From positions 90,768,001-90,832,000 of the forward strand of contig OX597817.1 of assembly GCA_951406725.2 (NCBI GenBank): a DNA stretch of 64,000 nucleotides, read 5' to 3'. The translations under genes were made by a program, and so were the position numbers. The notes below the pieces were generated by a model. The model saw only the letters and a program-made list of their open reading frames with translations. It ran no database searches and was not told where the DNA came from. Source of the stretch: Octopus vulgaris. Lineage: Eukaryota. This document shows, one piece after another, positions 358 to 62,343 of this stretch (positions are counted from its first letter, which is position 1; each line of letters begins with the position of its first letter).

Positions 358-1290
358 CTAAATGCCCAACGAAAATTTTAGCAGGAAAAATAGGAGGAGA
401 AATGATGTTTCAAGCCTGGATCTTTACTGAATAGAGGAAAAAGTCCAGAGATGAAATAAAGGAGGAAAGAGCAGACAGTTTGGGGAAAAGCACATGTATT
501 GTTACATTGCCAAAAAATAACTGACCTGAAGTTGGAAAGAAATAAGGAATGTGGCTTTTGAAGGCAGAAGAAACAGTTGGTGTTTGCATGCTCACGCGTG
601 TGTATATGTGTTTATATGTGAATGCAATTGTCTGTGTATATGTTCAGGTTGCAAGTAGCATGCTTGTATATTAGGGAATGGTATGTGAGATGGTAGTGTA
701 TGTGTGTGTGTATATTTATGTGAGTGTGTTTTGAGGGTAGAACTAACAATTAGTAACAGTAGGATGTTGTAGTAGTGGGATGTATGGTCAAGAGGCTGGG
801 TGATGCGTGTGTGTGTCACTGTATGTACATGTGTTTGTGCGTCAGTATGAGTATGTATGCGTGTGTACAGGAGTGTGTATACAAGTGTGCGCATGAGTGT
901 GTGTGTATGTGTGTGCATGTGAGTGTATGGTAATGTGTGTCAGTGTATGAGATTTCTGTAGGTGGTTATGATTATGTGCGTGTGTGTGTATGCAGTAGAT
1001 ATGTATATTGTGTGTAGTGGGGGGGGGTTAAATTAAGTAAGTGAATGGAAGATAAGTGGAAAGAAAACAGGAGGAGTAAAGCAAAGGAAAGGAGAATGAA
1101 ATTGGTGAGAGAGATGGAATTTGGAAGCTGTTACAAGAAAGAGAGAAGGTGCTAAGACCAAGCAGTGTATGAATTCATAAAGAGATGTACCATTGTTTCT
1201 TGCAAAGTCTTGTGGTGTTAGGTCCATGGTGTAAGGCCACACCTGCACTCTCAAGCCCTTCAATCATTCAATTGTTTCTGCTAAGAAAGT

Positions 1291-1648
1291 GCAAATGTGA
1301 CTGTGTGGTTAGAAGTTTGCTTCCCAACCACATGGTTCTAGATTCAGTCCCATTGCATGGCACCCTGGGCAAGTGTCTTCTGGATTTGGTAGACAGAAGC
1401 TGAACGAAGCTCATTGTATATGTACATATGTATGTGTGCATGTGTATTTGTGTGTCTCCCACCACTGCTTGACAACTGGTGTTGGTGTGTTTACATCCCT
1501 GAAAATTAGCAGTTTGTCAAAAGAGACTGATAGAATAAGTAACAGGCTTTTAAAAAATAAGTCAATCTATTTGATTAAAACTCTTCAAGGCAGTGCCCTA
1601 GCATTGGTTGCAGTCTAATGGCTGAAACAAGTAAAACAATAAAAGAAT
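1291..1648 (+). mobile_element. tRNA-derived SINE family A (internal TA/GT microsatellite), decayed copy
   Basis: A-box/B-box head (..ctgtgtggttagaagtttgcttcccaaccacatggttc..ttcagtccc), central microsatellite, tail ..aatggctgaaacaagtaaaa. The same sequence recurs many times in the window. Confidence 0.88.
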
Positions 1649-1733
1649 ATAATCATGTCTTAAGTTTTATTTTTCCTGTTTGCATCACCAAACTTCACTG
1701 TGCATGTGTGTATATATATATATATATATCTTA

Positions 1734-2020
1734 CTGGCACTTGTGCCGGTGCAACGTGAACAAAACATTTGAGTCAGGTCGTTGCCAGTGCCGCTGGACT
1801 GACTCCTGTGCAGGTGACACATAAAAAACACCATTTTCGAGCCTGGCCGTTGCCAGTACTGCCAGACTGGCCCTCGTGCCGGTGGCACATAAAAGCACCC
1901 ACTACACTCTCAGAGTGGTTGGTGTTAGGAAGGGCATAAAGCTGCAGGAACTCTCTCAGATCAGATTGGAGCCTGGTGCAACCATCTGGTTTGCCAGTCC
2001 TCAGTCAAATCGTCCAACCC
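1734..2020 (+). mobile_element. RTE-LINE 3'-tail-related repeat
   Basis: Shares gagtggttggYRttaggaagggcat...cagtcaaa..gtccaacccat with the 3' tail that follows the RTE ORF at 45720-45955. Confidence 0.7.
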
Positions 2021-3511
2021 ATACACACACAAACATGCATACACACATGCACACACACACATACACTATAAATAAAAGTGTAATGACCTTCCATAGTTTC
2101 TGTCTAATGAATTGTCACAAAGCTTTGGTTAGCCTATACCTATAGAAGAAGACTATAGATGCTGCACAGTGAGACTAAACCCAATATCATGTGATTGTGA
2201 AGCAAACTTCTTAACCACACAGCCAAGCCTGCATCTATGCCTATATAATGTTAGTAAGAAAGTATTTTTTCAAGAAATTGATTTATGGGTGAGAAGCAAG
2301 TATATGATGCTGAGTTGTAGCAGGTTGTAACCAACAAGTTTGTTTTAGTATAAATATATTTATGGAGGGAATGATAAAGATCTATTAGGATAGCAAGTGT
2401 GATTGGAATGGAAATTGTGTGTTTATCTATGGTTGAGTGAATATGTGGAGAAGCAATTCTTAAGTGGAGATTAGATTTGAGATGTGAAAGGAAGTGATAT
2501 AGGTCTAGAAGAATTTAGGTGCAATCTAATTACAAATGTATGCTCTCAGTATCTAAGTTGGTGTGATTAAAAGCTTATGTTATGTGGTGTTTGAATTTGG
2601 GATGTAGTAAGAAGTGAGTGATGATAGAAATTAGTATAGGTGAACGTAAGAATTAGTCAATAGAGTAAGGTAGTACAAATAATTTAAAACCATCAGCTAT
2701 TATTGAAAAACTATGTTATTGAGATATGATATTTTCTTTGAAAAAATATGTATTGCTATATAAAAAGTCAGAATTACAGGGGAAATACAGCAAAGTAAGA
2801 TAAAATAAAGTCAGAGAAATAGAAAAAAATATGTAAAGAGATACAGGTGGAAAACATGGTTAAAAAATAAATCTGAGAAATATAGAATATCTAAAATACA
2901 TAACAATATTATGTACATTCATAATCATCCTTATTAAACATGCCAAGTTTCATTTCTGTATAACTGAATTTATCTTCCTCTGAATTTGAATCTCTAAAAT
3001 GTATACAGAGAGTTGTTTTCTTCATACATCACTTGGTTTTAAAAGGGTTGTCAATACTTTGATCTGCTTGTTTCATTATTTAATAATTCATATTGTCTAC
3101 TTCAATGTTAATTACATTTATATCAATAATTTTCTTAAATTTTTACCAGTGATTTACCATAATTTATGCCTACCTTAAGGCATGGCTCATTGGGTAGTTG
3201 CCCAGAGGCAGCATGAGTCCTGGTGCCCAATTTTAATTTATATATGCTGTGGCTTGCTGTTAATAAGTATAGGGTCCAGTGTATTGATTTGCCTGGGGGG
3301 GGGGGGGTTATAAAATGCTGTTAAGACTGCTCTGCCTATCTATACTTCCACTAATTTTGAAATGTAGTCTTCTAAACAATTCTTTGAAAAAGGTAAATTA
3401 TTGAGTAACTACCTTCCCCTTAATATATATTCATGGTTTTGCAAGCTAACAATTCTAGTAGTTTAATCAATTGCATAGAGGGTTTTCAATACCTAATATT
3501 ACTTGACCATA

Positions 3512-3715
3512 AGGCAGAATCATAAGCACACCAGGCAAAATACTCAGCAGCATTTCGTCCATCCTTACAGTCCGAGTTCAAATTCCACTGAAGCCGACTT
3601 TACCTTTCATTCTTTTGGGGTTGATAAAATAAGTATGAGCTGAGTACTGGGGTTGATGTAATCAATTTACTTCCTCCCCTGAAGTTGCTGGCCTTGAGCC
3701 AAAATTTGAAACAAA
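3512..3715 (+). mobile_element. tRNA-derived SINE family B (Meta-domain-like)
   Basis: ggcagaatc..agca...gagttcaaattcc...gacttt.cctttcat.cttt.gggg ttgataaaataagta. Further copies at about 18820-19030(-), 27975-28172(-), 48882-49100(+), 52985-53165(+), 57230-57400(+), 63455-63670(+). Confidence 0.8.
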
Positions 3716-5819
3716 TATTACTGGCCCATAACTCAAGTAGCACTACCACTTTAATTCTCCACACTCCTACTCTTTAGATGAAACAGAAATGGCTCAGAAT
3801 GTGAGATTCTTCACTCCTGATGTTAACTAAACTCATCATCAAACTTTTCTATGAACTCTTGCTGAGGTGATACTGATAATAACATTAATGTTCTCCCCCA
3901 AATCCAATAACCAACCATTTTGTTCTAAACTATTTTCAGTAGTTTACAATAAATTTCTTTCTAAATTTCCAATATCTTCAAGGTGTCATTCAATAAAATA
4001 TCTATAAACACTGGTAGACATATCGCCCAAACCAGCTCATATCCCATGTCTTTATGAATGATAACTATTTGCTTGAATGAACAATGAAAATGACATTTAT
4101 ACATAACATTTGCTAATCTAAGGGTAGCAACACTGCTGTTATTAAGTCAGGCATAGAACTTGGATGTTGTGAGTTAAAATATTTCTCAAATTCTCACTGG
4201 TGCTTTTGCACAACATGCAATTATACCTGCACACACACCTCATACACATACACACACATACAAACACGGATATGATATATTCAACACACACAACCCCACC
4301 ATACACAAAACACACACAACATACACCACATATATCAAGCATAAGCATACATTCATACACATCACATTCAATTTGTTGAAGGGTTTTATGTTCTACATAT
4401 TTGCTGTGTCATTCAACTCATTCTGGTGGCTATGAGATTAATACTATTTGGTATAGCAAGGAGTTCAATGTAAGAGCTTAGTTATAGAATTATAGAAGGT
4501 AAAGAGCCTCATATAGTGATAACTATACTCAGATTGATACTTTATGTAGGGCTTCATAATAGAATTTGAGCAAATACTTACCAGAATCATTATAAATGCA
4601 ATGAAGATATGACTTGGCATGATACACTTAACAATAACTAATTACCTTTATACAAACATCAAGTAATAATATACAGGATTAAATAAATATACAATGATCA
4701 TGTTCAAGAAATACCACAAAATGGGTATCTAGGAAGAATTATTTAAGAGTGCCATATTGCTTATAACTGCTTAATACACATACTATCAAATGAGCAATAT
4801 CTGCTGAAAAATTGTAGAATATGCCAAAGAGTTGTGGTCATGATAGTATACAGAAATTGTACAAGACAACTGGTCCCAAGTAATTTAACTTTTGCTAAAA
4901 GAAGGTAAAAAACTGTATTGGAAATTGGTACTAGAGGAAATGAACTTGATGAAAAGAACTGCTAAATATTTGATAAATATCTTATGAATGTTTGATGAAT
5001 ATCTTATGAATACAAACCCAGAAAATGATGAGAGTCATATGAAAAGAGGTAAATGGTGAAGATTATTTCATGGGATATTTGAATGGGAATATTAATTGTA
5101 AGTGTGATTATTGCAAGCAATTGAAGTGTTATCAACCAAATGTTGAAGTGGTGGTTACTTTGACCAATACTTCTGACATTAGCAAGCACTAACGACTCTA
5201 TGAACTGTGTTTTTAATTAGTACTCACAATTACTAATGTAAACAGCAACATGGTTTTACTGTTGGCAGACTTACATGGAATAAGCTTCTATCTCTGTTTT
5301 CTATAACTTGTTAGCATGCTATAAAACTCAAAATATAACAACCCTAGGTTGATTTACTGCCTCTATTACAATACATTTGACTATTATTTTATGTAAGATA
5401 CCTACACTCATCATGCCACATGCCACAAGACCTTTGCTTTGGCAGCTATTTGAATCCACTTGTCATTTGTGTCAGTTTGTTTCACACACAGTTGCACATG
5501 AGTGCATATATCTAAAGTATTGCCTATATGCACATTACAACAGTTAAAATAGTAATGATCCAAAGTTTTTTTGCAAAGCAGAGAAAGATATGAAGAGCAC
5601 TTTGTCTATTAATAAAGATATATTTCTTTTCTTGTATATACAGATTTTTTTCTCATAATTTATTTATTTTTGCCTTCAGAATTTGAAAATAATTTTGAAA
5701 ATTTAAAAAGAAAAGGTAACATGCCTCTAAATGTTAAATAAATATTTTTTATGTTTGTTTCATTGAATGTAAATAAAATTGGTACAAATATATTTATTCA
5801 AATACTTAGAGCACACTTA

Positions 5820-5972: not shown

Positions 5973-6486
5973 TAAAGCTGAACTATCTCTATTATACATT
6001 CAAGTTATGTATAAAATTATTTTAACCCATCTTGAATTATTTCTTTATAAAATTTCCATATCTTTGTTGAAGAAAACTTGGTCATTTCACAAGTGCAAAT
6101 TGGCTATTGTTTTAAGTGAAAATCAAGCTTTCATTCTTTTTTAAGATTTTGAAGACTGCTTGAAGTAATGGTTTATGACATCAAGGAGATACATCCCATC
6201 ATCTGGAAATACAAGTGCAGATGGCCTTATGCCAAATGTAGCTGCCTTTTAAACGTATTGTTAGCTTCTACATCTCTAGATGAGTTTGAAAAAGAAAGCC
6301 ATGTCCAATCAGCAGGTGTTTGAAAATAAACTATCAATTGAACAATAAAGAAAAGAGAAATATAGTATTCTTGCTGTTATAGTGGAGCATGTTTCACATA
6401 TATGCTGTGAATATGACAGGGATAGAAGTATAGCTTGCTTTTGCAACAAGTGCAACTGGTATCTACATAAGTTTAAAAACTTAAGC

Positions 6487-6850
6487 AGGCATAGCTGTGT
6501 GGTAAGAAGTTTGCTTCCCAACCACATGATTCTGGGTTCAGTCTCACAGCATGGCACTTTGAGTGTTTTCTCCTTTAGTCTTGGGCTAACCAAAGCATTG
6601 TGAATGGACTTGGTAGATGAAAACTGAAAGAAGCCCGTTGTATGTGTGTGTTTGTCCCTCACCACCACTTGACAACCAGCGTTGCTGTGCTTACTTCCTT
6701 GTAACTTAATGATTTGGCAAAAGGGATCATTAGAAAAAGTACCCCGCTTAAAGAAAGTACTGGAGTTGAGCCGTTTGACTAAAAAAAAAAACCCTTCAAG
6801 GCAGTGCCCCAGCATGGCCACAGTCTAATGACTGAAACAAGTAAATAATA
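6487..6850 (+). mobile_element. SINE family A copy
   Basis: Head caggcatagctgtgtggtaagaagtttgcttcccaaccacatg, tail atgactgaaacaagtaaa. Confidence 0.9.
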
Positions 6851-7610
6851 AACGATATCAGTAGTCAAATGACAAAATAAAAAAACAATATAACATTTGT
6901 ATGCTACTGAAATAGCGTTATGGAGATGTACTTGCATAGCAGATGTTTTGATCTGAGATCATGTTCTGAAACTAAAGAGATTTCAGTGTGGAATACACAA
7001 GTTAGTCATTCAGAAACATACAAAGACTTTACATAAATGTTTATTTGTAATATAGTGTTGTAGTTTTTGTCCCTTGAAACCAAAACCTGTTCACAGACAA
7101 ACAATTTGTGCTTTAGTTTTGAATGACGAAAATTTTGAATGACAAAAATTTTGACACAATATTATAAATAAATGTTTAACTCTTCAGTATTCTGTCAAAT
7201 GTACTATGACTAGCACTCTGTTGGTTATAATGATGAATTGATCCAATCAATGGAACAATCTACTTGTGAAATTAACATGTAAGTGGCTGAGCACTCTACA
7301 GACACATGTAGTATACCCCATGAAAATAATTACTGATATTATTACTACAACTACACATGTTATATTCATTACTGTTAACATTACTACAGCCAGTTGAAAA
7401 CAAGGCTTAGAAATGATATTTAAACGTAGCTGTCTACTGACCAGCTAGGTCCATGACTATTGCTGACGGATACTGTACTCTTGTTTTCAGAAACGTAAAG
7501 TCTACTTACAGCCAATCTTTTCAGCTTCCTGTATTAACAAAATTGAGAGTTACTACTCTACTACTCAGTTTTGTGTGACAAAAATTTTGACACAATATTA
7601 TAAATAAATG

Positions 7611-8177
7611 TTTAGCCCTTTAGTATTCAGATTATCCTGTCAAATGTTCTACAACTGTCATTCTGTCGGTTATAATGATAAGTTGATCCAATCAATGGAA
7701 CAGCCTACTTGTGAAATTAACATGCAAGTGGCTGAGCACTCCACAGACATGTGTACCCTTAATATAGTTCTCAGGGAGATTCAGTGTGACACAGAAAGTG
7801 ACAAGACTGGCTCTTTGAAATATAGGTATTACTCATTTTTGCCAGTTGAGTGGACCAAAGCAATGTGAAATAAAATGTCTTGCTCAAGGACACAAACATG
7901 TTGCCAGGAATTGAACTCATGACCTTATAATTATGAACTGAATACTCTAACCACTAAGCCATGTACCTTCACATTTGTCAAATGTAATGCTTATTTATTC
8001 ACATGGTTTTGAATTAATCATACTTTATAAAATAGCTTTGAGGTTTTGATGATGTGATGGCTTATTTTTAGAATGAAATTGTAGGGTAAGAGTGAGAAGC
8101 CAGATCTGGGTAGTTTGAACATAAAACATGTAAAATATTTTGGCTGGGTATGGCTACTTTAAATACTAAAGGATTAA
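7611..8177. mobile_element. piggyBac-like MITE interrupted by a SINE
   Basis: Ends resemble degenerate TTAACCCTTT/AAAGGGTTAA (ttagcccttt..aaaggattaa). An opposite-orientation copy of the same family lies at about 37723-37935. Confidence 0.65.
7648..7975 (-). mobile_element. tRNA-derived SINE family C (CORE-like centre) with 10-bp TSD
   Basis: Minus-strand head tggcttagtggttagag...gagttcaattcc followed by tgtgtccttgagcaagac. TSD TGTCAAATGT at 7638-7647 and 7976-7985. Confidence 0.85.
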
Positions 8178-8328
8178 TTGAGGTTAACAGTTTTTGTGTG
8201 TTTCTGAATGGCTAACTTGTGTTTTTTACATTGCAAATACTGTAATAGTGTTAGTTGCTTTAAATGTTTTCTGTGTCATGTGACTTTGTGTGACTTTGTG
8301 TGATGGTCATGTGGTCAGTATTATTTAA

Positions 8329-8436
8329 CCTTTAGTACACTGCGTTTTCTCTAGAATTGTTTCCCTTGCCACTTCCCTGTTACTACAAGGGAGAAAACTC
8401 ATATGGTGACATGATGCAGCTACAGTGTGTTAAAGG
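8329..8436. mobile_element. 108-bp piggyBac-like MITE
   Basis: TTAA on both sides (8325-8328, 8437-8440). TIRs cctttagtacactg / cagtgtgttaaagg. Confidence 0.75.
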
Positions 8437-8756
8437 TTAACTTGACAAGCAGTCTGATGTGAAATCTTGGTTATGCAGTTAAATTAAGCTTCTGGATTAA
8501 AGGATCTTGGGTGAGTGTGGTTTTACTTAGCCAATTACTTTACTGTGAGCTTTTGTTGTTGGACTTGAGGCCAGTATTTAATGGAATTGTTATAACACAC
8601 AAAACAAATACAGATACATACACAAATGCAACATGTACATACATAAGACATATGCATGGCATCTCACCACACACACACACAACATACATACAAACATATA
8701 TCATCATAATCATCATCATCATCATTATTTAACATTTGCCTTCCATGCTGGCATGG

Positions 8757-52969: not shown

Positions 52970-53320
52970 ATTACTATTATTACTAAGGTGGCGAGCTGGC
53001 AGCTTAGCAGTATTTTGTCCATCTTTACATTCTGAGTTCAAATCCATTGAGGTCAGCTTTGCCTTTCATCCTTTCGAGGTCGATGAAATAAGTACCAATT
53101 ACACAATGTAAGTAACTGGCTCCCTCCCACCAAAATTTGAGATCATGCGCCTATAGTAGAAAGGATTATTATTATTGTTGTAGTTATTTGACTTGACTCA
53201 GGAATAGCCTTGTTCCTGGTAGATTTCGTGTGGGTAGCAGGTTACTAACAATAATGCTAGATATAGGTGTAGGAGTGGCTACATAGGCGTAGGAGTGGCT
53301 GTGTAGTAAGTAGCTTGCTT

Positions 53321-54787
53321 CCGGTTACCCAGAGTGTAATTGGTTTGTCGGTTGTGTGCGAGTCAGACGTTTTTCCTTTTGCTGCTTTGAGGTTAGTAAT
53401 GTACTCGGACCTTAGCGGGTCTGAGCTGTCTTCTTCAGAGGAGGAGCTGCTGAGAGCAGTAGAAGGCATTGATGAATATTTAAAGAAAATGAAGAGTTTT
53501 GCAGAGGCTGTGGAGGTGAAGAGAAAAGAGGTGGATTTATCAAGAATGAAGGAGCATGGAAAAATGGTGCAGAAAGTGGGTGGCAACGTGACGTTGTCAC
53601 CCCCACAAAGAATAATGGATGGCATAAAAAGAAGAACGGTCATATACAAAGTTTACTCGATAAAGAGTAAGAAGGTCGACCTAATAGAAATAGAGAAAGT
53701 AGAAAAGGCAGTAAAGGAGGAATCCAACAGAGTAATATACATGTCAAGAGGATGCCAATATGGGACAATGGTAGTCCAGTTTAGAACAGAGGAGGAGGCA
53801 AGGAGGCTGGCGGGTAGAACGATAAAGATGAAAGAAATGGTCCTTCTACCCACGTATCTTGGAAGAAGGACTTCCAAGATAAGGGTAGAAGGAATTCCGC
53901 CTGATATAAATGTGGCTTGGGTAGCGGCAGCTGTCCTTGTTGGAAGCGAACAGAAGGTGGCTGTCCTCCAAGCCACAGAAACTGAAGAAGGAGGATCAAA
54001 AGGAAGGACACTCGAGTTAATTATTCAGATGGAGGAGGGACAACTTGAGAACTTGGCAGAGACTGTGACGCTGGGGGAAATCATGCTGAGGGTGTGGGTA
54101 GAGGGCAGAGTACCACGTTGTTTTAAATGTGGCCAAAAGGGCCACATTAGAGCATACTGCCCTCTACAAAGGACTATGGCTGAGGATATAGTTGCGGAGA
54201 CAGAAGAGAAAAGAGAGGAAGACAAAATAGACAAAGGAAACGATAAAAAAGAGGAAGAATGGAAAATTGAAGAGCGCAATAGGAGAAAGAGGAAAAAAAG
54301 AAAAGACACTGAGTATGATGTGGCACCCCAGTCCAACCCCATCCCACCGAAGACCACTCAGACCCACCCTCCCCATACAGACACCAAACCCACCCACCCT
54401 ATTTCCCCTCAAGAAAAAAAGAAAAAGAGAGAACAGACACCACAAAATTTAGAAGACCCCCCCCTCCCGGAGAAAAAGGTTATGAATGCATGACGGAGAG
54501 AATGTTATCATTAAGTGACAGTGAAAAGGGAAAAAGGATTGGACGAAAAGAGAAAAAGGACTCAGGACCCAAAGACAGCGAGTTGTGTTACTCAGTGTGG
54601 GGTGAGTAGCACACTCTTCATAATATCGTTTTCAGATATCATTCATATTATCATATTTTAATTTGTTCTTCATGTGCATTTTCATGTTCATTCATTATAT
54701 CATATTTTATTTTTAATTGTTATATGTCCCCACATGTGTTGTAGTGTCCCCTCTGTGTATTGCCTTTATGGCAAATTTAATAAAATA
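53321..54787 (+). mobile_element. ORF1-only non-LTR retroposon (HAL1-like, L1/Tx1-type)
   Basis: 13-bp TSD AAGTAGCTTGCTT (53308-53320, 54788-54800), single long ORF, U-rich 3'UTR, hairpin TTGCC-tttat-GGCAA (54760-54774), AATAAA (54779-54784). No EN/RT sequence. Confidence 0.85.
53399..54493 (+). CDS. Gag-like ORF1 protein (predicted RRM-like region + CCHC zinc knuckle, L1/Tx1 ORF1p/ZCCHC3-like), 364 aa
   Basis: Uninterrupted frame from ATG 53399. Motifs VQFRTEEEA, IRVEGIPP and VWVEGRVPR-CFKCGQKGHIRAYC (CX2CX4HX4C). Basic, Pro-rich disordered tail. Confidence 0.85.
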   Translation: MYSDLSGSELSSSEEELLRAVEGIDEYLKKMKSFAEAVEVKRKEVDLSRMKEHGKMVQKVGGNVTLSPPQRIMDGIKRRTVIYKVYSIKSKKVDLIEIEKVEKAVKEESNRVIYMSRGCQYGTMVVQFRTEEEARRLAGRTIKMKEMVLLPTYLGRRTSKIRVEGIPPDINVAWVAAAVLVGSEQKVAVLQATETEEGGSKGRTLELIIQMEEGQLENLAETVTLGEIMLRVWVEGRVPRCFKCGQKGHIRAYCPLQRTMAEDIVAETEEKREEDKIDKGNDKKEEEWKIEERNRRKRKKRKDTEYDVAPQSNPIPPKTTQTHPPHTDTKPTHPISPQEKKKKREQTPQNLEDPPLPEKKVMNA

Positions 54788-54918
54788 AAGTAGCTTGCTT
54801 TCCAACCAAATGGTTCCGGGTTCAGTCTCACTGCGTGGCACCTTGGGCAAGTGTCTTCTACTATAGCCTTGAGCTGACCAAAGCCTTGTGAAATGGAAAC
54901 TGAAAGAAGCCCGTCGTA

Positions 54919-55015
<97 letters not shown>

Positions 55016-58000
55016 ATATGTTTGTGTGTCTGAGTTTGTCCCCGCAACATCGGTTGATAACCGATGCTGGTGTGTTTACATCCCCGTAACTTAGCGGTTC
55101 AGCAAAAGAGACCGATAGAATAAGTACTAGGCTTCCAAAGAATAAGTCCTGGGGTCGATTTGCTCTACTAAAGGCGGTGCTCCAGCATGGCCACAGTCAA
55201 ATGACTGAAACAAGTAAAAGAGTAAAAGGGTATACCCACAAGCTTTCAATAATCATTCAAGTGCTTAATATCCTTCTGATAATCTTTTCTGTTGCTAAGA
55301 GGCAAACCTTCTATAGAAGCTCTACAGAACATTCCATTCCAATCTCCTTCAACCATTTTTCTATGTCGTTACTCACAGTCCTTAATGCACCAATTATTAC
55401 AGGCACAAATTCTAGTTTTCATATTTCAAATTTCACAATCTCAAATTTTGAGTGATTTTTTTTCTAATTTTTCACCTTTCTTCGCAATCCTGGAATCAAA
55501 TGGACATGATGACTCAATCAGTAAGCAAATTTGCTTTTCCTTGTCTATTATAGTTATAGCTTATTATTCTTTTCTATCCTTTTATCCATTTGAAGTGGAA
55601 AATCCCATAAAATTTTGCTTTTATCTGACTCTTCCTACCCAATGATTATGCCAAGTACATCAGCACAAAACTTTCACAACTTGATCATGCTTCCATTTCT
55701 TATATTCTCCTTGAGCCAATTTGGGACATTCTGCAACAATGTGTGTCATTTTTTCATCCCAAATATAACATTTTGCTGACACCTTCTGCCCATACACATA
55801 TTTTCTCAGGTTCTTTCTTTGAATTGACTGATCTTGAGCTACTATAATAAGGCTCTCCTGTTTCTTTTTGCAATTACCTCTTTTTCAACCAAGCCAAGGG
55901 ATTTGTTTCACATACATCCTTAGTGATTTTCCAAAACTGACCATGCAAAGGTTCCTCATCGATCTGATTTGCATGTTCTCTAACAATTTCATACTTGATC
56001 ACCTGTCCTGTATTCACTGCCTTTAGTAATTTCTCTGGGCTGGTCTCCAAATAATCTAGTAAGCTGTTGCATTCCATCTGCACATACTCTTCCACACCAT
56101 TTAAGCCTCTTCAAATATGACCAGTTAATATCAGCTTTCAAGTAGTGAGCTCCATACATAATCAACAACTTTCTAATTTTTCTGTCAAGCTTCTGTATGT
56201 CACTTTTTGTTCAATCCACAGTTCCAGCTTCATATCTGATAACTGATATTGCTCATGAATCTAATGCTTCAGTAACGTTTTTTTTATTTCAACCTTGGCT
56301 GTAATATTTTTTCTCATTTTCCTTCTATACTCTCTACTTGCAATTTGCTTCATCTTTCCATGTTTTATTTCATCTGTCTTCAGTATTCCCAAATACTTGT
56401 ACCACAGTTCTTTTTCAACTGCTTTCATTGTTTGTGTATCTAGCATTTCAATTCCATAGCTTCCTTCAAACCTTGCCCATTCCATTATCAATATTTCAGT
56501 CCCAAATTCCATACCTACATCATTTGAGAAAATGCAAACAAAACGCACAAAACTTTGAAGCTGCTTCTCACTTTTTGTTTAAAGCCTTATATCATCCATA
56601 AACAGGAGATGATTTATCTGACCATACTCTTTTCTCAAATCATAAGCTATTTAAACTTTCCATAATATCAAACTGAGTGGTATCATTGCCATTACAAATA
56701 GTAATGGTGATAAGCTATCACCTTGAAATATACCACATCCAATGCTCACTCTGCCAAGTCTGTTTTCCTCCAATCAATTCAATATTCCAATGTTTCATAC
56801 TTTCATTGACCAGTTTCTTCATATTTTCTGTCACTCCAAAGAATGCTTATTGTTTTAATTATCCAAATGTATGGTACCATGTCAAAAGCTCCTCTGTTAT
56901 CCAACCTTTATTATTATAATTATTATTATCATTATCATAATTATTATTATTAATCTTGTTGTTGATGCTTTGATATGTACAAGTTGTTCCAAGTCTCACC
57001 CAGATTTTCTCAATTAACAACAGGTTTTACTGTCGGTGTTATTTATGATTAACAATGATGCATAGTAGGAAAAGAAGATCTAATTCTGAGGATTAAGATT
57101 ATATCAAATATCTTTGATTTTAAATAAGTTTCAAGCAAATCAAATAGTCTTCTTCTTCTTCTTAGTAATAGTAGCAGCAGTAGTAGTAGTGGTGAGTGGA
57201 GTAGAAGCAGCAGCGGAAGAGTATGAAAGAAAATATATTGTGGTATTTAATAACATCTGAGTTCAAATCCTGCTGAGGTCAATTATTCTTGTCATCCATC
57301 CAGGGTGGATAAAATAAAGGTACCTGTCAGATATAGGCTAAATTATAATTAATTCTGCTCTGTACCCTGAAAATATGTGACTGTGTGCCTATATTGGAAA
57401 TTGTTGATTCACTTTGTCACAATAGGACAGAATTGGTCGAGCATTGGACATTAAAAATCATTACTATTGACTTCTTTATTCCTTCAAAATAATTTTGTTC
57501 TTTTGACCTTTATCCTCTTTCTCTTTCACCCTCTCCCTCCCTCCTCCTTTTCTCCTCTTTCTCTACCACATCTGTTTCACTTTTTAATTGGTCAGTCCTT
57601 ATATCTTTTATTTATATATTTTTCATTTATTTATATATTTAGTTTTTTTTTTTTCCCCTTTCTATCTATTTCGTCCATTCTTTGTTGTGGCGCCATCCCC
57701 TGACAAAGGACTTTCAAAGAATACAGAAGTGAACAGTAACAATCAATATGTATATCTGAACATGAATATTTGTGTGTTTATTCGTATATATGCATATGAG
57801 TGTATGAGCATGTGTACAAGTGTGTATGTGTGTGTATAATTATTGACAGAAATGACCCGTCCAAAACAAAACTGTATTGTTTACAACATACAAAAACTCT
57901 TGCCAAATATATATAAGAAAGATATATTGATCAAGGTCATTGATCAGGCTATTTATTTCTCAATCCACTAGTTAAGCTAATTTCATAAAACCCTAATTTT

Positions 58001-59619: not shown

Positions 59620-59852
59620 TTCTTTTACATGTTTCAGTCATTTGACTGTAGCCATGCTGGAGCACCATCTTAAAGGGTTTTAGTCCAAGAAATTAACCCC
59701 AGGACTTATCCTTTGTAAGCTTAGGACTTGTTCTATTGGTATATTTGCCAAACTGCTAAGTTTTGGGGACATAAACACACCAACATCAGTTGTCAAGCGA
59801 TGGTGGAGGGTACAAACAAAGACACACATATACACACACATACATACATACA

Positions 59853-59914
<62 letters not shown>

Positions 59915-60080
59915 AATACATGCATACATGACAGGCTTCTTTCAGTTTCCACCTACCAAATCCACTCACAAGGCTTTGGTCAGCCTGAGGCTATAGTAGA
60001 AAGCACTTGCTCTAGGTGCCACACAGTGGAATTGAACCTGGAACTGTGAAGTTGGGAAGCAAGCTACTTACCACACAGCA
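59620..60080 (-). mobile_element. SINE family A copy
   Basis: Family consensus on the minus strand with (CA)n centre. Confidence 0.9.
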
Positions 60081-60249
60081 ACATCTCCACACAATCACAC
60101 CTGTGCCTACACTAAAAAAATGTATAAAACAATAATTTAAACAAAATGTACATAACAAAAATTAAAATGAAATACTATTAGTAAAGTTAGAGTTGCAGTC
60201 CCAACATTTCTGCCAGCTTGCCATCATTCATATTATTGTCTTGTGCACC

Positions 60250-60800
60250 TAAAAGCACTAGTTAACACTTCTTTTCATTGGTTGGGGTTGAAAAATACCA
60301 ACATCTGCAGGGTAAGATTGCCGTAGTTCATTATTGTGCCTTAATTTTATTTTTGCAACATTCTATCTTTTTCTTGCTGTCTGTATTCTAAACTTAACTG
60401 CATTTGCTGCTTTTACCCCATCAGAAAATCTGTGGCACCACAGGTGTGTGATTTCATCTATAAGTTGTCTGCTTGATTTTCTAAGGACAGGGAATTTCAG
60501 CTTCTTGTCTTCTTCATTTTCTTTGTTATTTTTTTGATGTGGGGCATCATTGTTGTTTTGTGTGAGTTGTTCCCTCTCAATAGTTTTAGTTATTCTAGGT
60601 TGATTTTTGATTTTCAAGACATTTCATCCTTTCCATTTTGTGTTTCTTTGATGATTTAATGCTTACCTCAGTAACCATTCTTTCTTCCTTGTTTCTTGAC
60701 AATAGAATGATCCTTTTAATTTCTACTGTTAGAGTACAGGGTGTTTGTGTGTTTGTTTCTAGGACTGATAAAAAACGATTCTTCCCGTCATTCTGAGAGT
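60250..60800 (-). mobile_element. Highly decayed LINE N-terminal region, possibly R4-type
   Basis: A/G-rich minus strand with weak resemblance to R4 N-terminal motifs (..aagaatggttactgag.., ..CGA..). Confidence 0.35.
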
Positions 60801-61523
60801 TTGAACTGCTGGTATGCTAGAAAAGGGGGTTTGTAGCAATTAATGCTGCTCTCATCTTCTTGTCTAATCCTTCTTGGGCATAAAGCTCTGAAGTTGTTTT
60901 TACTACAACAAATTTAACAACTAGGCTTTCTGCTCTGTATCATGACCTTCATGCTCTTTGTTTTAGCACCCCCAACTAGGCACAAGAATCATTAGAATCT
61001 GTAAATCCATTTTGACACCCCCTGACTACATGTTGCCCCTTTTCAGTCCTGCTTTAGCCACTCACCATACTTCAACACAAAAGTGATGGCTAGCTATGGA
61101 TCTACATGTTTCCAATGTCTCATATCACCACCCTTGTATTTCTTTTCTCTCTGGAGAGGGGCATAAACATATTGGCAGAGGTGTGTCTAATAATTTCAGC
61201 CTATATTTTGGCTGAGTCTTGGTTTTGAATATGTAGCAGATAGTGTCATAACTTTTCCCATTTTACAGTTGAAAAGTATTTCTTTTGAGATGTTCTGGAG
61301 AACTTGTAGGAATTCCTGTCATGAGGGTAGATTTAATACTGTGAAACTTTTTTCTAAAGCATTGATATATAATTTTTTTTTCACTGTCTGTCTTACATTA
61401 ACATGGCAAAGAAACATTATTTAGTCAGAAAATGATTTTTGACTACATTTTTGTTTCTCTCAGAACCATGTGAACTCTAAAGAATCTGTTTGTTGAATAA
61501 CATGTTAAAACAACTGTTATATA

Positions 61524-61911
61524 GGCGCAGGAGTGGCTGTGTAGTAAGTAGCTTGCTTACGAACCACATGGATCCGGGTTCAGTCCCACTGCATGGCACC
61601 TTCTACTAAAGCCTCAGGCCGACCAAAGCCTTGTGAGTGGATTTGGTGGATGGAAACTGAAAGAAGCCCGTTGTATATATGTATGTATGTGTATGTTTGT
61701 ATATGTTTGTGTGTCTGTGTTTGTCCCCGCAACATCGCTTGACAACCAATGCTGGTGTGTTTACATCCCCGTAACTTAGCGGTTTAGCAAAAGGGACTGA
61801 TAGAATAAGTACTAGGCTTACAAAGAATAAGTCCTGGGGTTGATTTGGTTGACTAAAGGCAGTGCTCCAGCATGGTGGCCACAGTCAAATGACTGAAACA
61901 AGTAAAAGAGT
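61524..61911 (+). mobile_element. SINE family A, near full-length reference copy
   Basis: ggcgcaggagtggctgtgtagtaagtagcttgcttacgaaccacatggatccgggttcagtccc ... gactgaaacaagtaaaagagt. Confidence 0.93.
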
Positions 61912-62343
61912 ATATAAGAAATTTAAAGTGCAAATGCCACTATTGCTGGTGTTGTTACAATCACAATCATTAAAGATAACCGTTTGACTGTTTGGAATAT
62001 TTTATCTCTTAACTGTTAATTCAAAAGTTCATTTCATTTTTATTCTTCAAATTGTGTATTTAGCTTCATGTGTTTTTCCATATTATCTGCTGTAATGTTT
62101 TGTCATGTATCATATTTTTGCTTGGTGGCCATTTTGAAAATGAAAATGCTGTGTGAGTAAATGAATAAGAAAAGTCTGTAAAAACAACCCACCTTCTAAT
62201 TGTCTAATCCTAAATATCAAAGATGGGGTATTCCTCAGAGTATTATAATCCTTTTTAGCAAGTATGCCAAAGAATATTTCATTTAGTGATGCTATAAATG
62301 GTCTAGCTTTGGAGTGAAATAAACATATGTGTACACTTCAAAA

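Follow-up and report, generated by a model that had tools for sequence, protein, structure and literature searches.

The 64,000-nucleotide stretch of Octopus vulgaris DNA analyzed here (hereafter, the window) contains one copy of an old retroposon that encodes ORF1 alone, comprises multiple subfamilies, inserts at a single base in the head of a SINE and is likely mobilized in trans by a LINE that shares its terminal hairpin and its target. We assign to this reading a probability of roughly 85%. The ORF1 of the window copy (Table 1) is the longest among the 6 ATG-initiated ORFs of at least 120 aa in the window and contains a single CCHC knuckle (Pfam PF00098, E 5.7e-4); no endonuclease or reverse transcriptase (RT) families were found by Pfam in this 364-aa ORF. 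The unit of 1,467 bp is bracketed by an exact 13-bp direct repeat and, once it is subtracted, the flanks rejoin as a SINE head that resembles the empty copy at about 61523. Most of what the earlier note had read from the sequence holds, namely, a ~1.47-kb unit with a 78-bp 5'UTR, a 3' hairpin and AATAAA, without endonuclease or RT and inserted in a SINE head. Two points have to be amended. The ORF described there as intact does have the reported length and CCHC knuckle but carries a frameshift in a C-run near 54458-54466, about 40 codons ahead of the family stop; the C-terminus typical of the family (relatives L123, L130, and L132) is held out of frame, so that the 364-aa product lacks about 40 residues of the family protein. 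The 13-bp repeat, taken there for a target site duplication (TSD), is exact, but part of it is likely carried by the element itself, as discussed below.

Table 1. Features of the ORF1-only element and its host SINE in the window (positions are those of the window).
Feature	Position	Strand	Remarks
Host SINE head, 5' part	53284..53307	+	Left of the insertion; matches the empty copy at ~61523
13-bp direct repeat, 5' copy	53308..53320	+	Likely ~9-10 bp duplicated, the rest target-like and borne by the element
5'UTR, 78 bp	53321..53398	+	Varies between subfamilies; for several relatives, the alignment starts at base 78-79
ORF1, 364 aa as read	53399..54493	+	N-terminal helices, predicted RRM-like domains, CCHC, tail
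ORF1 domains			Predicted RRM-like at ~aa 69-156 and 157-238; CCHC at aa 240-255; charged, proline-rich tail
Family ORF1 C-terminus, out-of-frame remainder	54460..54609	+	Stop codon (TAG) at 54607-54609
Predicted stem-loop spanning the family stop codon	54580..54616	+	-20.1 kcal/mol
3'UTR	54617..54787	+	Layout common to all ORF1-only subfamilies; terminal poly(A) run absent
Terminal hairpin	54760..54774	+	Common to the helper LINE; likely signal for the helper RT
Second AATAAA	54779-54784	+	Missing in many relatives
AATAAA across the element/target junction	54784..54789	+	Last bases supplied by the target
Direct repeat, 3' copy (target site)	54788..54800	+	
Host SINE remainder	54801..55228	+	B-box-like motif, (TA)n/(TG)n tract, SINE tail

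The 78-bp 5'UTR likely holds a putative internal promoter. The 5' ends differ among subfamilies and start with motifs that are similar to ETS or NRF1 sites (window 53316-53325; L008, L015, L128, and L131), which suggests swapping of internal promoters. The stem-loop at the stop codon can be recognized by eye at the same place in distant ORF1-only subfamilies. In the host SINE, the motifs at 53296-53306 and 54819-54829 are A-box-like and B-box-like, respectively, and the direct repeat begins two bases beyond the former; at 53263-53300, the first part of the SINE head is doubled, with two 18-base copies, 20 bases apart.

A DNA search of the genome (G000, 2.8 Gb; 40 scored of 703 candidates) yielded 51 matches, 26 of which, the window copy counted, are near full length (aligned from no later than query base 79 to at least base 1460, with 73-100% identity) and are spread over many chromosomes. 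The ten closest copies show 93.3-96.4% pairwise identity. In the ORF1 protein search, 150 of the 14,885 candidates were scored and 90 loci were fetched around those matches; in none of these 90 loci does an ORF2 start less than 1.3 kb from the best ORF1 match, and in autonomous relatives, ORF2 begins 533-924 bases behind ORF1. Retrotransposition as a unit devoid of ORF2, which had been proposed from the single copy, is thus supported, and so is the existence of a family, with many copies of ~1.45 kb that have the same ORF-to-3'UTR layout. In subfamilies A1-A5, B, C, D, and E, the 3'UTR is arranged in the same way throughout, starting with the stop-codon stem-loop and ending with the tail. This commonality suggests that ORF2 was lost once and that ORF1 then remained under selection for a long time.

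Other ORF1-only elements are present in the same genome. A young subfamily of ~1.73 kb (L144-L148 and L160, e.g., G000:C14:37733500-37750000), which is located off the SINE site, has an ORF1 core 44-45% identical to that of the window copy and forms head-to-tail arrays, with nine ORF1 matches in 16.5 kb. There is also a second, deeply diverged ORF1-only group, with elements of 2.1-2.7 kb and ORF1 about 20-30% identical, that occupies the same SINE site and has the same type of tail (L046, oriented 5974-8634; L049, oriented 1729-4078; L047, oriented 1184-3279); this group likely reached the SINE site independently. One locus (L054, G000:C15:50064000-50073900) contains two 5'-truncated copies within a 3.9-kb tandem duplication that adjoins an unrelated LINE and an assembly gap; it was counted once.

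Structure prediction, proposed in the earlier note as a check of the ORF, gives two RRM-like domains next to the CCHC knuckle. In the predicted model, residues 1-258 (mean pLDDT 84) form two alpha/beta domains; all 10 Foldseek matches of this model at E <0.001 are tandem-RRM proteins, the best VIA-align match is a La RRM (Z 9.5, rmsd 2.4, 80 residues), and Atlas places the protein with CCHC and ZCCHC3-type RNA-binding clusters at 0.90-0.92. The ORF1 protein (ORF1p) is accordingly predicted to be of the RRM-RRM-CCHC type. Pfam and PDB sequence searches recovered the zinc knuckle alone, apart from RRM_3 in 5 of the 30 members searched, so that the RRMs derive from the predicted model. Among the fold matches listed, there is no chain of L1 ORF1p, to which the protein may nevertheless be related. 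The named protein homologues of ORF1 are all from Octopus (three of four; the fourth has no name). In an Octopus bimaculoides protein model, ORF1 (57% identity over 62% of the query) is joined to C2H2 zinc fingers, a fusion that is either a gene-model artefact or an exonised copy.

ORF1 is kept under purifying selection. With frames picked for being stop-free, dN/dS between subfamilies A1, A2, and A3 is 0.27, 0.17, and 0.17 at dS of 0.7-1.3, the other non-saturated group comparisons give 0.07-0.32, and the values inside subfamilies are 0.17-0.42 (A1, 0.42).

The proposal that the element targets SINE heads, originally made from one copy, is borne out by the 3' ends. Among the 68 distinct 3' ends that were collected with the last 150 bases of the element as the query, and that are partly non-independent owing to tandem arrays and to a neighbour common to L131, L132, and L260, the 12-base SINE site is found exactly in 38, with at most one mismatch in 57, and with at most two mismatches in 60; the two-mismatch test is passed by 0.06-0.09% of the window positions and by 1 of 500 AAATA sites. 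Inspection by eye of the 8 failing ends indicates that six (L029, L112, L255, L260, L263, and L267) lie at this SINE site too, obscured by indels or deletions, by decay or by a wrongly called end, whereas one belongs to another subfamily (L161), and one is off target (L277). The exact tail pattern has 13 matches genome-wide, and in all 13 the target comes next. The niche is large because two exact 33-nt variants of the empty head occur 27,720 and 30,096 times (57,816 in total), and the 64-kb window alone contains 9 near-matches to the site. As each duplication restores the target site, different elements can accumulate there head to tail. Certain neighbours are found in an identical order in separate stacks (L130/L289, L131/L112, L132, L260, L110, L294, and L318), an observation suggestive of read-through transcripts that move several elements together.

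A tRNA origin of the SINE head is plausible. Motifs similar to tRNA promoter boxes are visible by eye, and the local matches to 30 genomic tRNA loci are weak and tied (Ala 51, Glu 50, Lys 49); no tRNA was called in the SINE head by ARAGORN, nor by Rfam within 59700-62000 of the window. Real tRNA genes were considered as another possible target; in the small sample of these genes (34 matches; 63 scored of 656,489 candidates), the 12-base site is present in none of the 30 loci on reading. Another short repeat, apparently also a SINE (L023, L057, L252, L267, and L275), ends in the same tail family, of the type not associated with the SINE site; the same 7-base start follows 4 of its 5 complete ends, twice inside another SINE head. 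This repeat may be a SINE that is driven by this LINE group and has a target of its own.

The best candidate for the source of the enzymatic machinery is a LINE of about 5.44 kb, of the L1/Tx1 type (ORF1 and endonuclease-RT), with the same terminal hairpin. The 3' ends of all 61 copies of this LINE that were examined are located at the same SINE site, and 56 copies have a full 5' end; in one stack (L050), a LINE of 5.5 kb that encodes ORF1 and an endonuclease-RT ORF2 comes directly behind a short element. An autonomous LINE sharing the 3' hairpin, which the earlier note had suggested seeking, has thus been found and turns out to share the target as well. The common tail and target make this LINE lineage the likely helper. 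The family is young, with 95-100% identity (40 scored of 6,751 candidates) and a median pairwise identity of 99.2% among ten copies; among 20 copies, three (L095, L106, and L107) have an open ORF1 of 466-467 aa together with an open ORF2 of 1,133 aa. Pfam identifies Exo_endo_phos, RVT_1, and zf-RVT in the helper ORF2, the nearest solved structure is human L1 ORF2p (E 8e-67; R2, 6e-20), and the APE endonuclease, RT and C-terminal zinc finger place the ORF2 in the L1 group. By the measure of insertion specificity given in the available text of PMC4494074 (more than 20% of flanks of one type), both the helper (61/61) and the short element (60/68) are specific.

The helper LINE likely belongs to the Tx1 clade because its sister LINE uses (TC)n as Kibi does; L1-Tx1 families are, moreover, listed for Octopus vulgaris. 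No named Tx1 protein was found among the homologues by protein searches and cluster look-up. The sister LINE, with 77% identity in the RT and about 67% in ORF2, has a 1,138-aa ORF that is open in several copies, and (TC)n follows in all 9 ends with a tail among the 20 loci fetched (L194-L199, L201, L211, and L213, e.g., G000:C6:37278400-37285800). Older LINEs at the SINE site (L202, L203, and L204; ORF2 identity 70-93%) share the same site and span the age of the short family; L050 and L202-L204 are 85-95% related. Given that the young helper copies (99.2%) are younger than the window subfamily (93.3-96.4%), the actual helper was probably an older member of this lineage.

The tails were compared in an alignment of 21 hand-chosen rows, one or two per family, where the 10 SINE-site rows represent five short subfamilies, two second-group copies, and three LINEs. 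Common to the aligned tails are a pyrimidine tract and a hairpin whose loop has 5 bases. Within the 5-pair stem, 75% of the cells pair, and two-sided changes occur in 22 of 105 cells; stem covariation is 0.40, compared with 0.09 in shuffled and at most 0.06 in slid controls, by a statistic that ignores the relatedness of the rows. The outer stem pair is formed in only 3 of the 21 rows. The hairpin of the window copy taken on its own is weak (z -1.52, 15 of 200 shuffles equally good), so that it is the covariation across families that supports this structure. The 10 SINE-site rows have a longer spacer after the stem; in the 11 other rows, AATAA is located directly behind the stem. In the SINE-site elements, the first two target bases complete AATAAA, and poly(A) is absent at the junctions. 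Stem-loops at the 3' end are a mark of stringent-type LINE/SINE pairs, as described in the available part of PMC3747384.

The 5' junctions suggest that the 13-bp repeat is composite. Of the helper LINE insertions, 16 have a T at base 13 of the 3' target, and in all 16 of them the 5' copy has the A of the element; target differences at bases 10-12 are missing from the 5' side in 6 of 6 cases, with 1 difference the other way. In this LINE, the final 6-7 bases of the 5' copy match the element rather than the target. An extra base after base 9 or 10 is present in about 20 of 56 helper junctions. In the short family, the same extra-base junction is seen in L003 and L014, and a longer, inherited target-like lead in L002, L009, L010, L016, and L017. 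The true target duplication is thus likely about 9-10 bp, with the remainder borne by the element. Because the 5' copies keep the bases of the element, target-like bases are likely present at the start of the RNA and would anneal to the upstream part of the target. Among the targets of the young helper, 35 of 61 carry the exact 16-mer of its own 5' end.

The ancestry of the element was examined in a careful tree of 30 representative ORF1 rows and in a quick-search tree of 64 rows. In the 30-row tree, the 17 ORF1-only rows group together at 93/95, just under the star threshold of the tool, with all 9 autonomous rows outside; nested in this group are the 9 SINE-site rows (97/93), whose sisters are subfamilies that do not use the SINE site. 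The 64-row tree agrees with this grouping. A clade uniting the 9 SINE-site rows with 4 ORF1s of the helper lineage is rejected (p-AU 2e-9). In the 197-aa core, the ORF1 is 38% identical to that of the helper and 46% identical to that of the (TC)n LINE. A direct deletion derivative of the present helper, which was considered as an origin of the element, is ruled out by the 38% ORF1 identity and the p-AU of 2e-9. Judging from the sequences of the 90 loci examined among 14,885 candidates, the element is an old independent lineage that does not derive from the present helper; a closer autonomous relative may be found among the ORF1 candidates outside those 90 loci. The nesting of the SINE-site subfamilies among those that do not use this site suggests that the helper was switched through a change of the tail.

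The life cycle of the element could then proceed as follows. The RNA would be transcribed from the element's own 5' end and coated in cis by ORF1p, and such binding of its own RNA would explain the selection on ORF1. The helper ORF2p would recognize the terminal hairpin, nick the SINE head one base past the A-box-like motif by sequence recognition, and prime reverse transcription; the target-like bases at the 5' end of the RNA would anneal to the target upstream, thereby completing the 5' junction. With the target restored by the duplication, the next elements would stack head to tail. Each insertion would place at least 1.5 kb between the SINE promoter boxes and, with the boxes split, the SINE copy would be silenced. 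In a broader scenario that we consider somewhat better than an even bet, an octopus Tx1-type radiation took the SINE promoter as a strict target, an ORF1-only lineage that had persisted without an RT of its own beyond synonymous saturation entered this niche from non-SINE sites by swapping only its terminal hairpin and last bases for those of a new helper LINE, and a second, unrelated ORF1-only lineage converged independently on the same tail and target.

The insertion site could instead be set mainly by tethering through Pol III factors or by RNA-DNA pairing at the nick, with a loosely specific endonuclease. In line with this possibility, only one base separates the A-box-like motif from the site, target-like bases are carried at the 5' end of the RNA, and the junction-spanning AATAAA implies processing inside the SINE, which would leave target bases on the RNA 3' end; furthermore, the helper prefers the variant that matches its own 5' end (the 35 of 61 above) although the two SINE variants are about equally frequent. 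This preference could, however, reflect SINE subfamily age. Tethered elements such as TRE5-A, however, insert some way off their target and not at a fixed base (PMC3706591); the arrays described here stack at a rebuilt site, where the tail of another element replaces the upstream SINE head; and the use of (TC)n by a sister with 77% RT identity points to specificity residing in ORF2p. Recognition of the sequence by the helper ORF2p is therefore preferred, and a dominant role of tethering or pairing seems unlikely, if worth keeping in mind.

Even less probable is an origin of the ORF1-only subfamilies by repeated deletions from lost or unsampled LINEs, in which case the selection on ORF1 would predate the loss of ORF2. 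HAL1s arose several times in mammals (PMC5753468, in the portion available), at least 2 further ORF1-only groups (of the L144/L162 and L039/L148 types) lie outside the main clade, and autonomous LINEs are sampled only in part. Against repeated origins stand the single 3'UTR layout across A1-A5, B, C, D, and E, the lack of ORF2 in all 90 loci, and dN/dS below 1 inside subfamilies too (0.17-0.42). As for a lone LINE copy that lost ORF2 after insertion and hit the SINE by chance, the case that the earlier note had named as refuting its reading, the only point in its favor is the great abundance of the SINE, with the 9 near-matches in the window. The near full-length family on many chromosomes and the use of the same base in 60 of 68 ends, compared with under 0.1% by chance, rule it out for practical purposes.

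Elements of this general kind are known. Non-autonomous LINEs that retain ORF1 include HeT-A (Jockey), HAL1 (L1), and Ag-Sponge (CR1) in the available sections of PMC5786205 and PMC5753468, so that the earlier comparison with HAL1 is apt as to the ORF1-only type but not as to the restriction of such elements mainly to mammals (PMC5786205, same sections). Like these elements, the octopus retroposon combines a 5' part that encodes ORF1 with a LINE 3' end, lacks ORF2, is present in multiple copies and presumably depends on an autonomous partner; specifically, it has a homologous ORF1p, was amplified without ORF2 and shares its 3' end with an autonomous LINE. Unlike them, as far as those sections describe, it has a predicted RRM-RRM-CCHC protein, ends in a hairpin without poly(A), uses a single SINE base and encodes an ORF1 only 38% identical to that of its helper; no Tx1-derived case is listed there. 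Assignment to HAL1 in the strict sense, that is, to elements derived from mammalian L1, was rejected given that the named homologues are all from Octopus and that the protein has a predicted tandem RRM and CCHC. The octopus element works like HAL1, but its origin is separate.

The helper, in turn, resembles LINEs of the Tx1 clade, for which the available text of PMC4494074 and PMC3706591 gives a range of fixed targets: Tx1D for Tx1L, Mariner-N4_AMi for Tx1-Mar, U2 for Keno, 5S for Mutsu, (TC)n for Kibi, (TTC)n for Koshi, and a tRNA-Leu spacer for Dewa. It is an L1-group LINE with an APE endonuclease and a fixed repeat target, transposon targets have precedents in the cases covered by these texts, and its sister LINE matches Kibi in the (TC)n target. 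In contrast to the target in the octopus, the transposon targets given there are DNA transposons, LTR elements, and satellites; here, it is a SINE promoter region, in 61 of 61 copies. SINEU of crocodilians, which likely borrows the target of a Tx1 helper (PMC4494074, available text), is similar in being non-autonomous and taking over the target preference of a Tx1-type helper; SINEU, however, is non-coding, with snRNA heads and a Mariner target, whereas the octopus element encodes an ORF1p under selection. Dada DNA transposons also use a fixed position, in tRNA genes and often in the A box, but these are DDE DNA transposons in real tRNA genes, and the word "SINE" is absent from the main texts of PMC3706591 and PMC8869645. 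For Octopus vulgaris, 13 recently active L1-Tx1 families have been described (PMC13282606, 2026), in a main text where the words "target", "nested", and "non-autonomous" do not occur; "Tx1" does not occur in the text available of PMC9115989. Among the papers listed by our literature searches, none describes a SINE-head-specific LINE or a Tx1-derived ORF1-only element. Within that scope, ORF1-only LINEs and transposon-targeting Tx1 elements are known separately, and their combination, together with the SINE-head target, appears to be unreported.

Altogether, a SINE head can be added to the few strict targets known for non-LTR retrotransposons. The presence in one genome of closely related LINEs with open ORF2s and different targets (the SINE head, (TC)n, and others) makes it possible to map the specificity of APE endonucleases, a long-standing question that is also relevant for targeted gene insertion. 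The element further offers a natural case in which to test what maintains selection on the ORF1 of a non-autonomous element whose helper has an ORF1 of its own. The choice of both helper and target seems to lie in about 25 terminal bases. In the annotation of octopus repeats, nests of LINEs in SINEs and mixed tandem arrays will be mis-split. If the scenario of a Tx1-type radiation on the SINE promoter is true, that radiation would be a parasite of a parasite.
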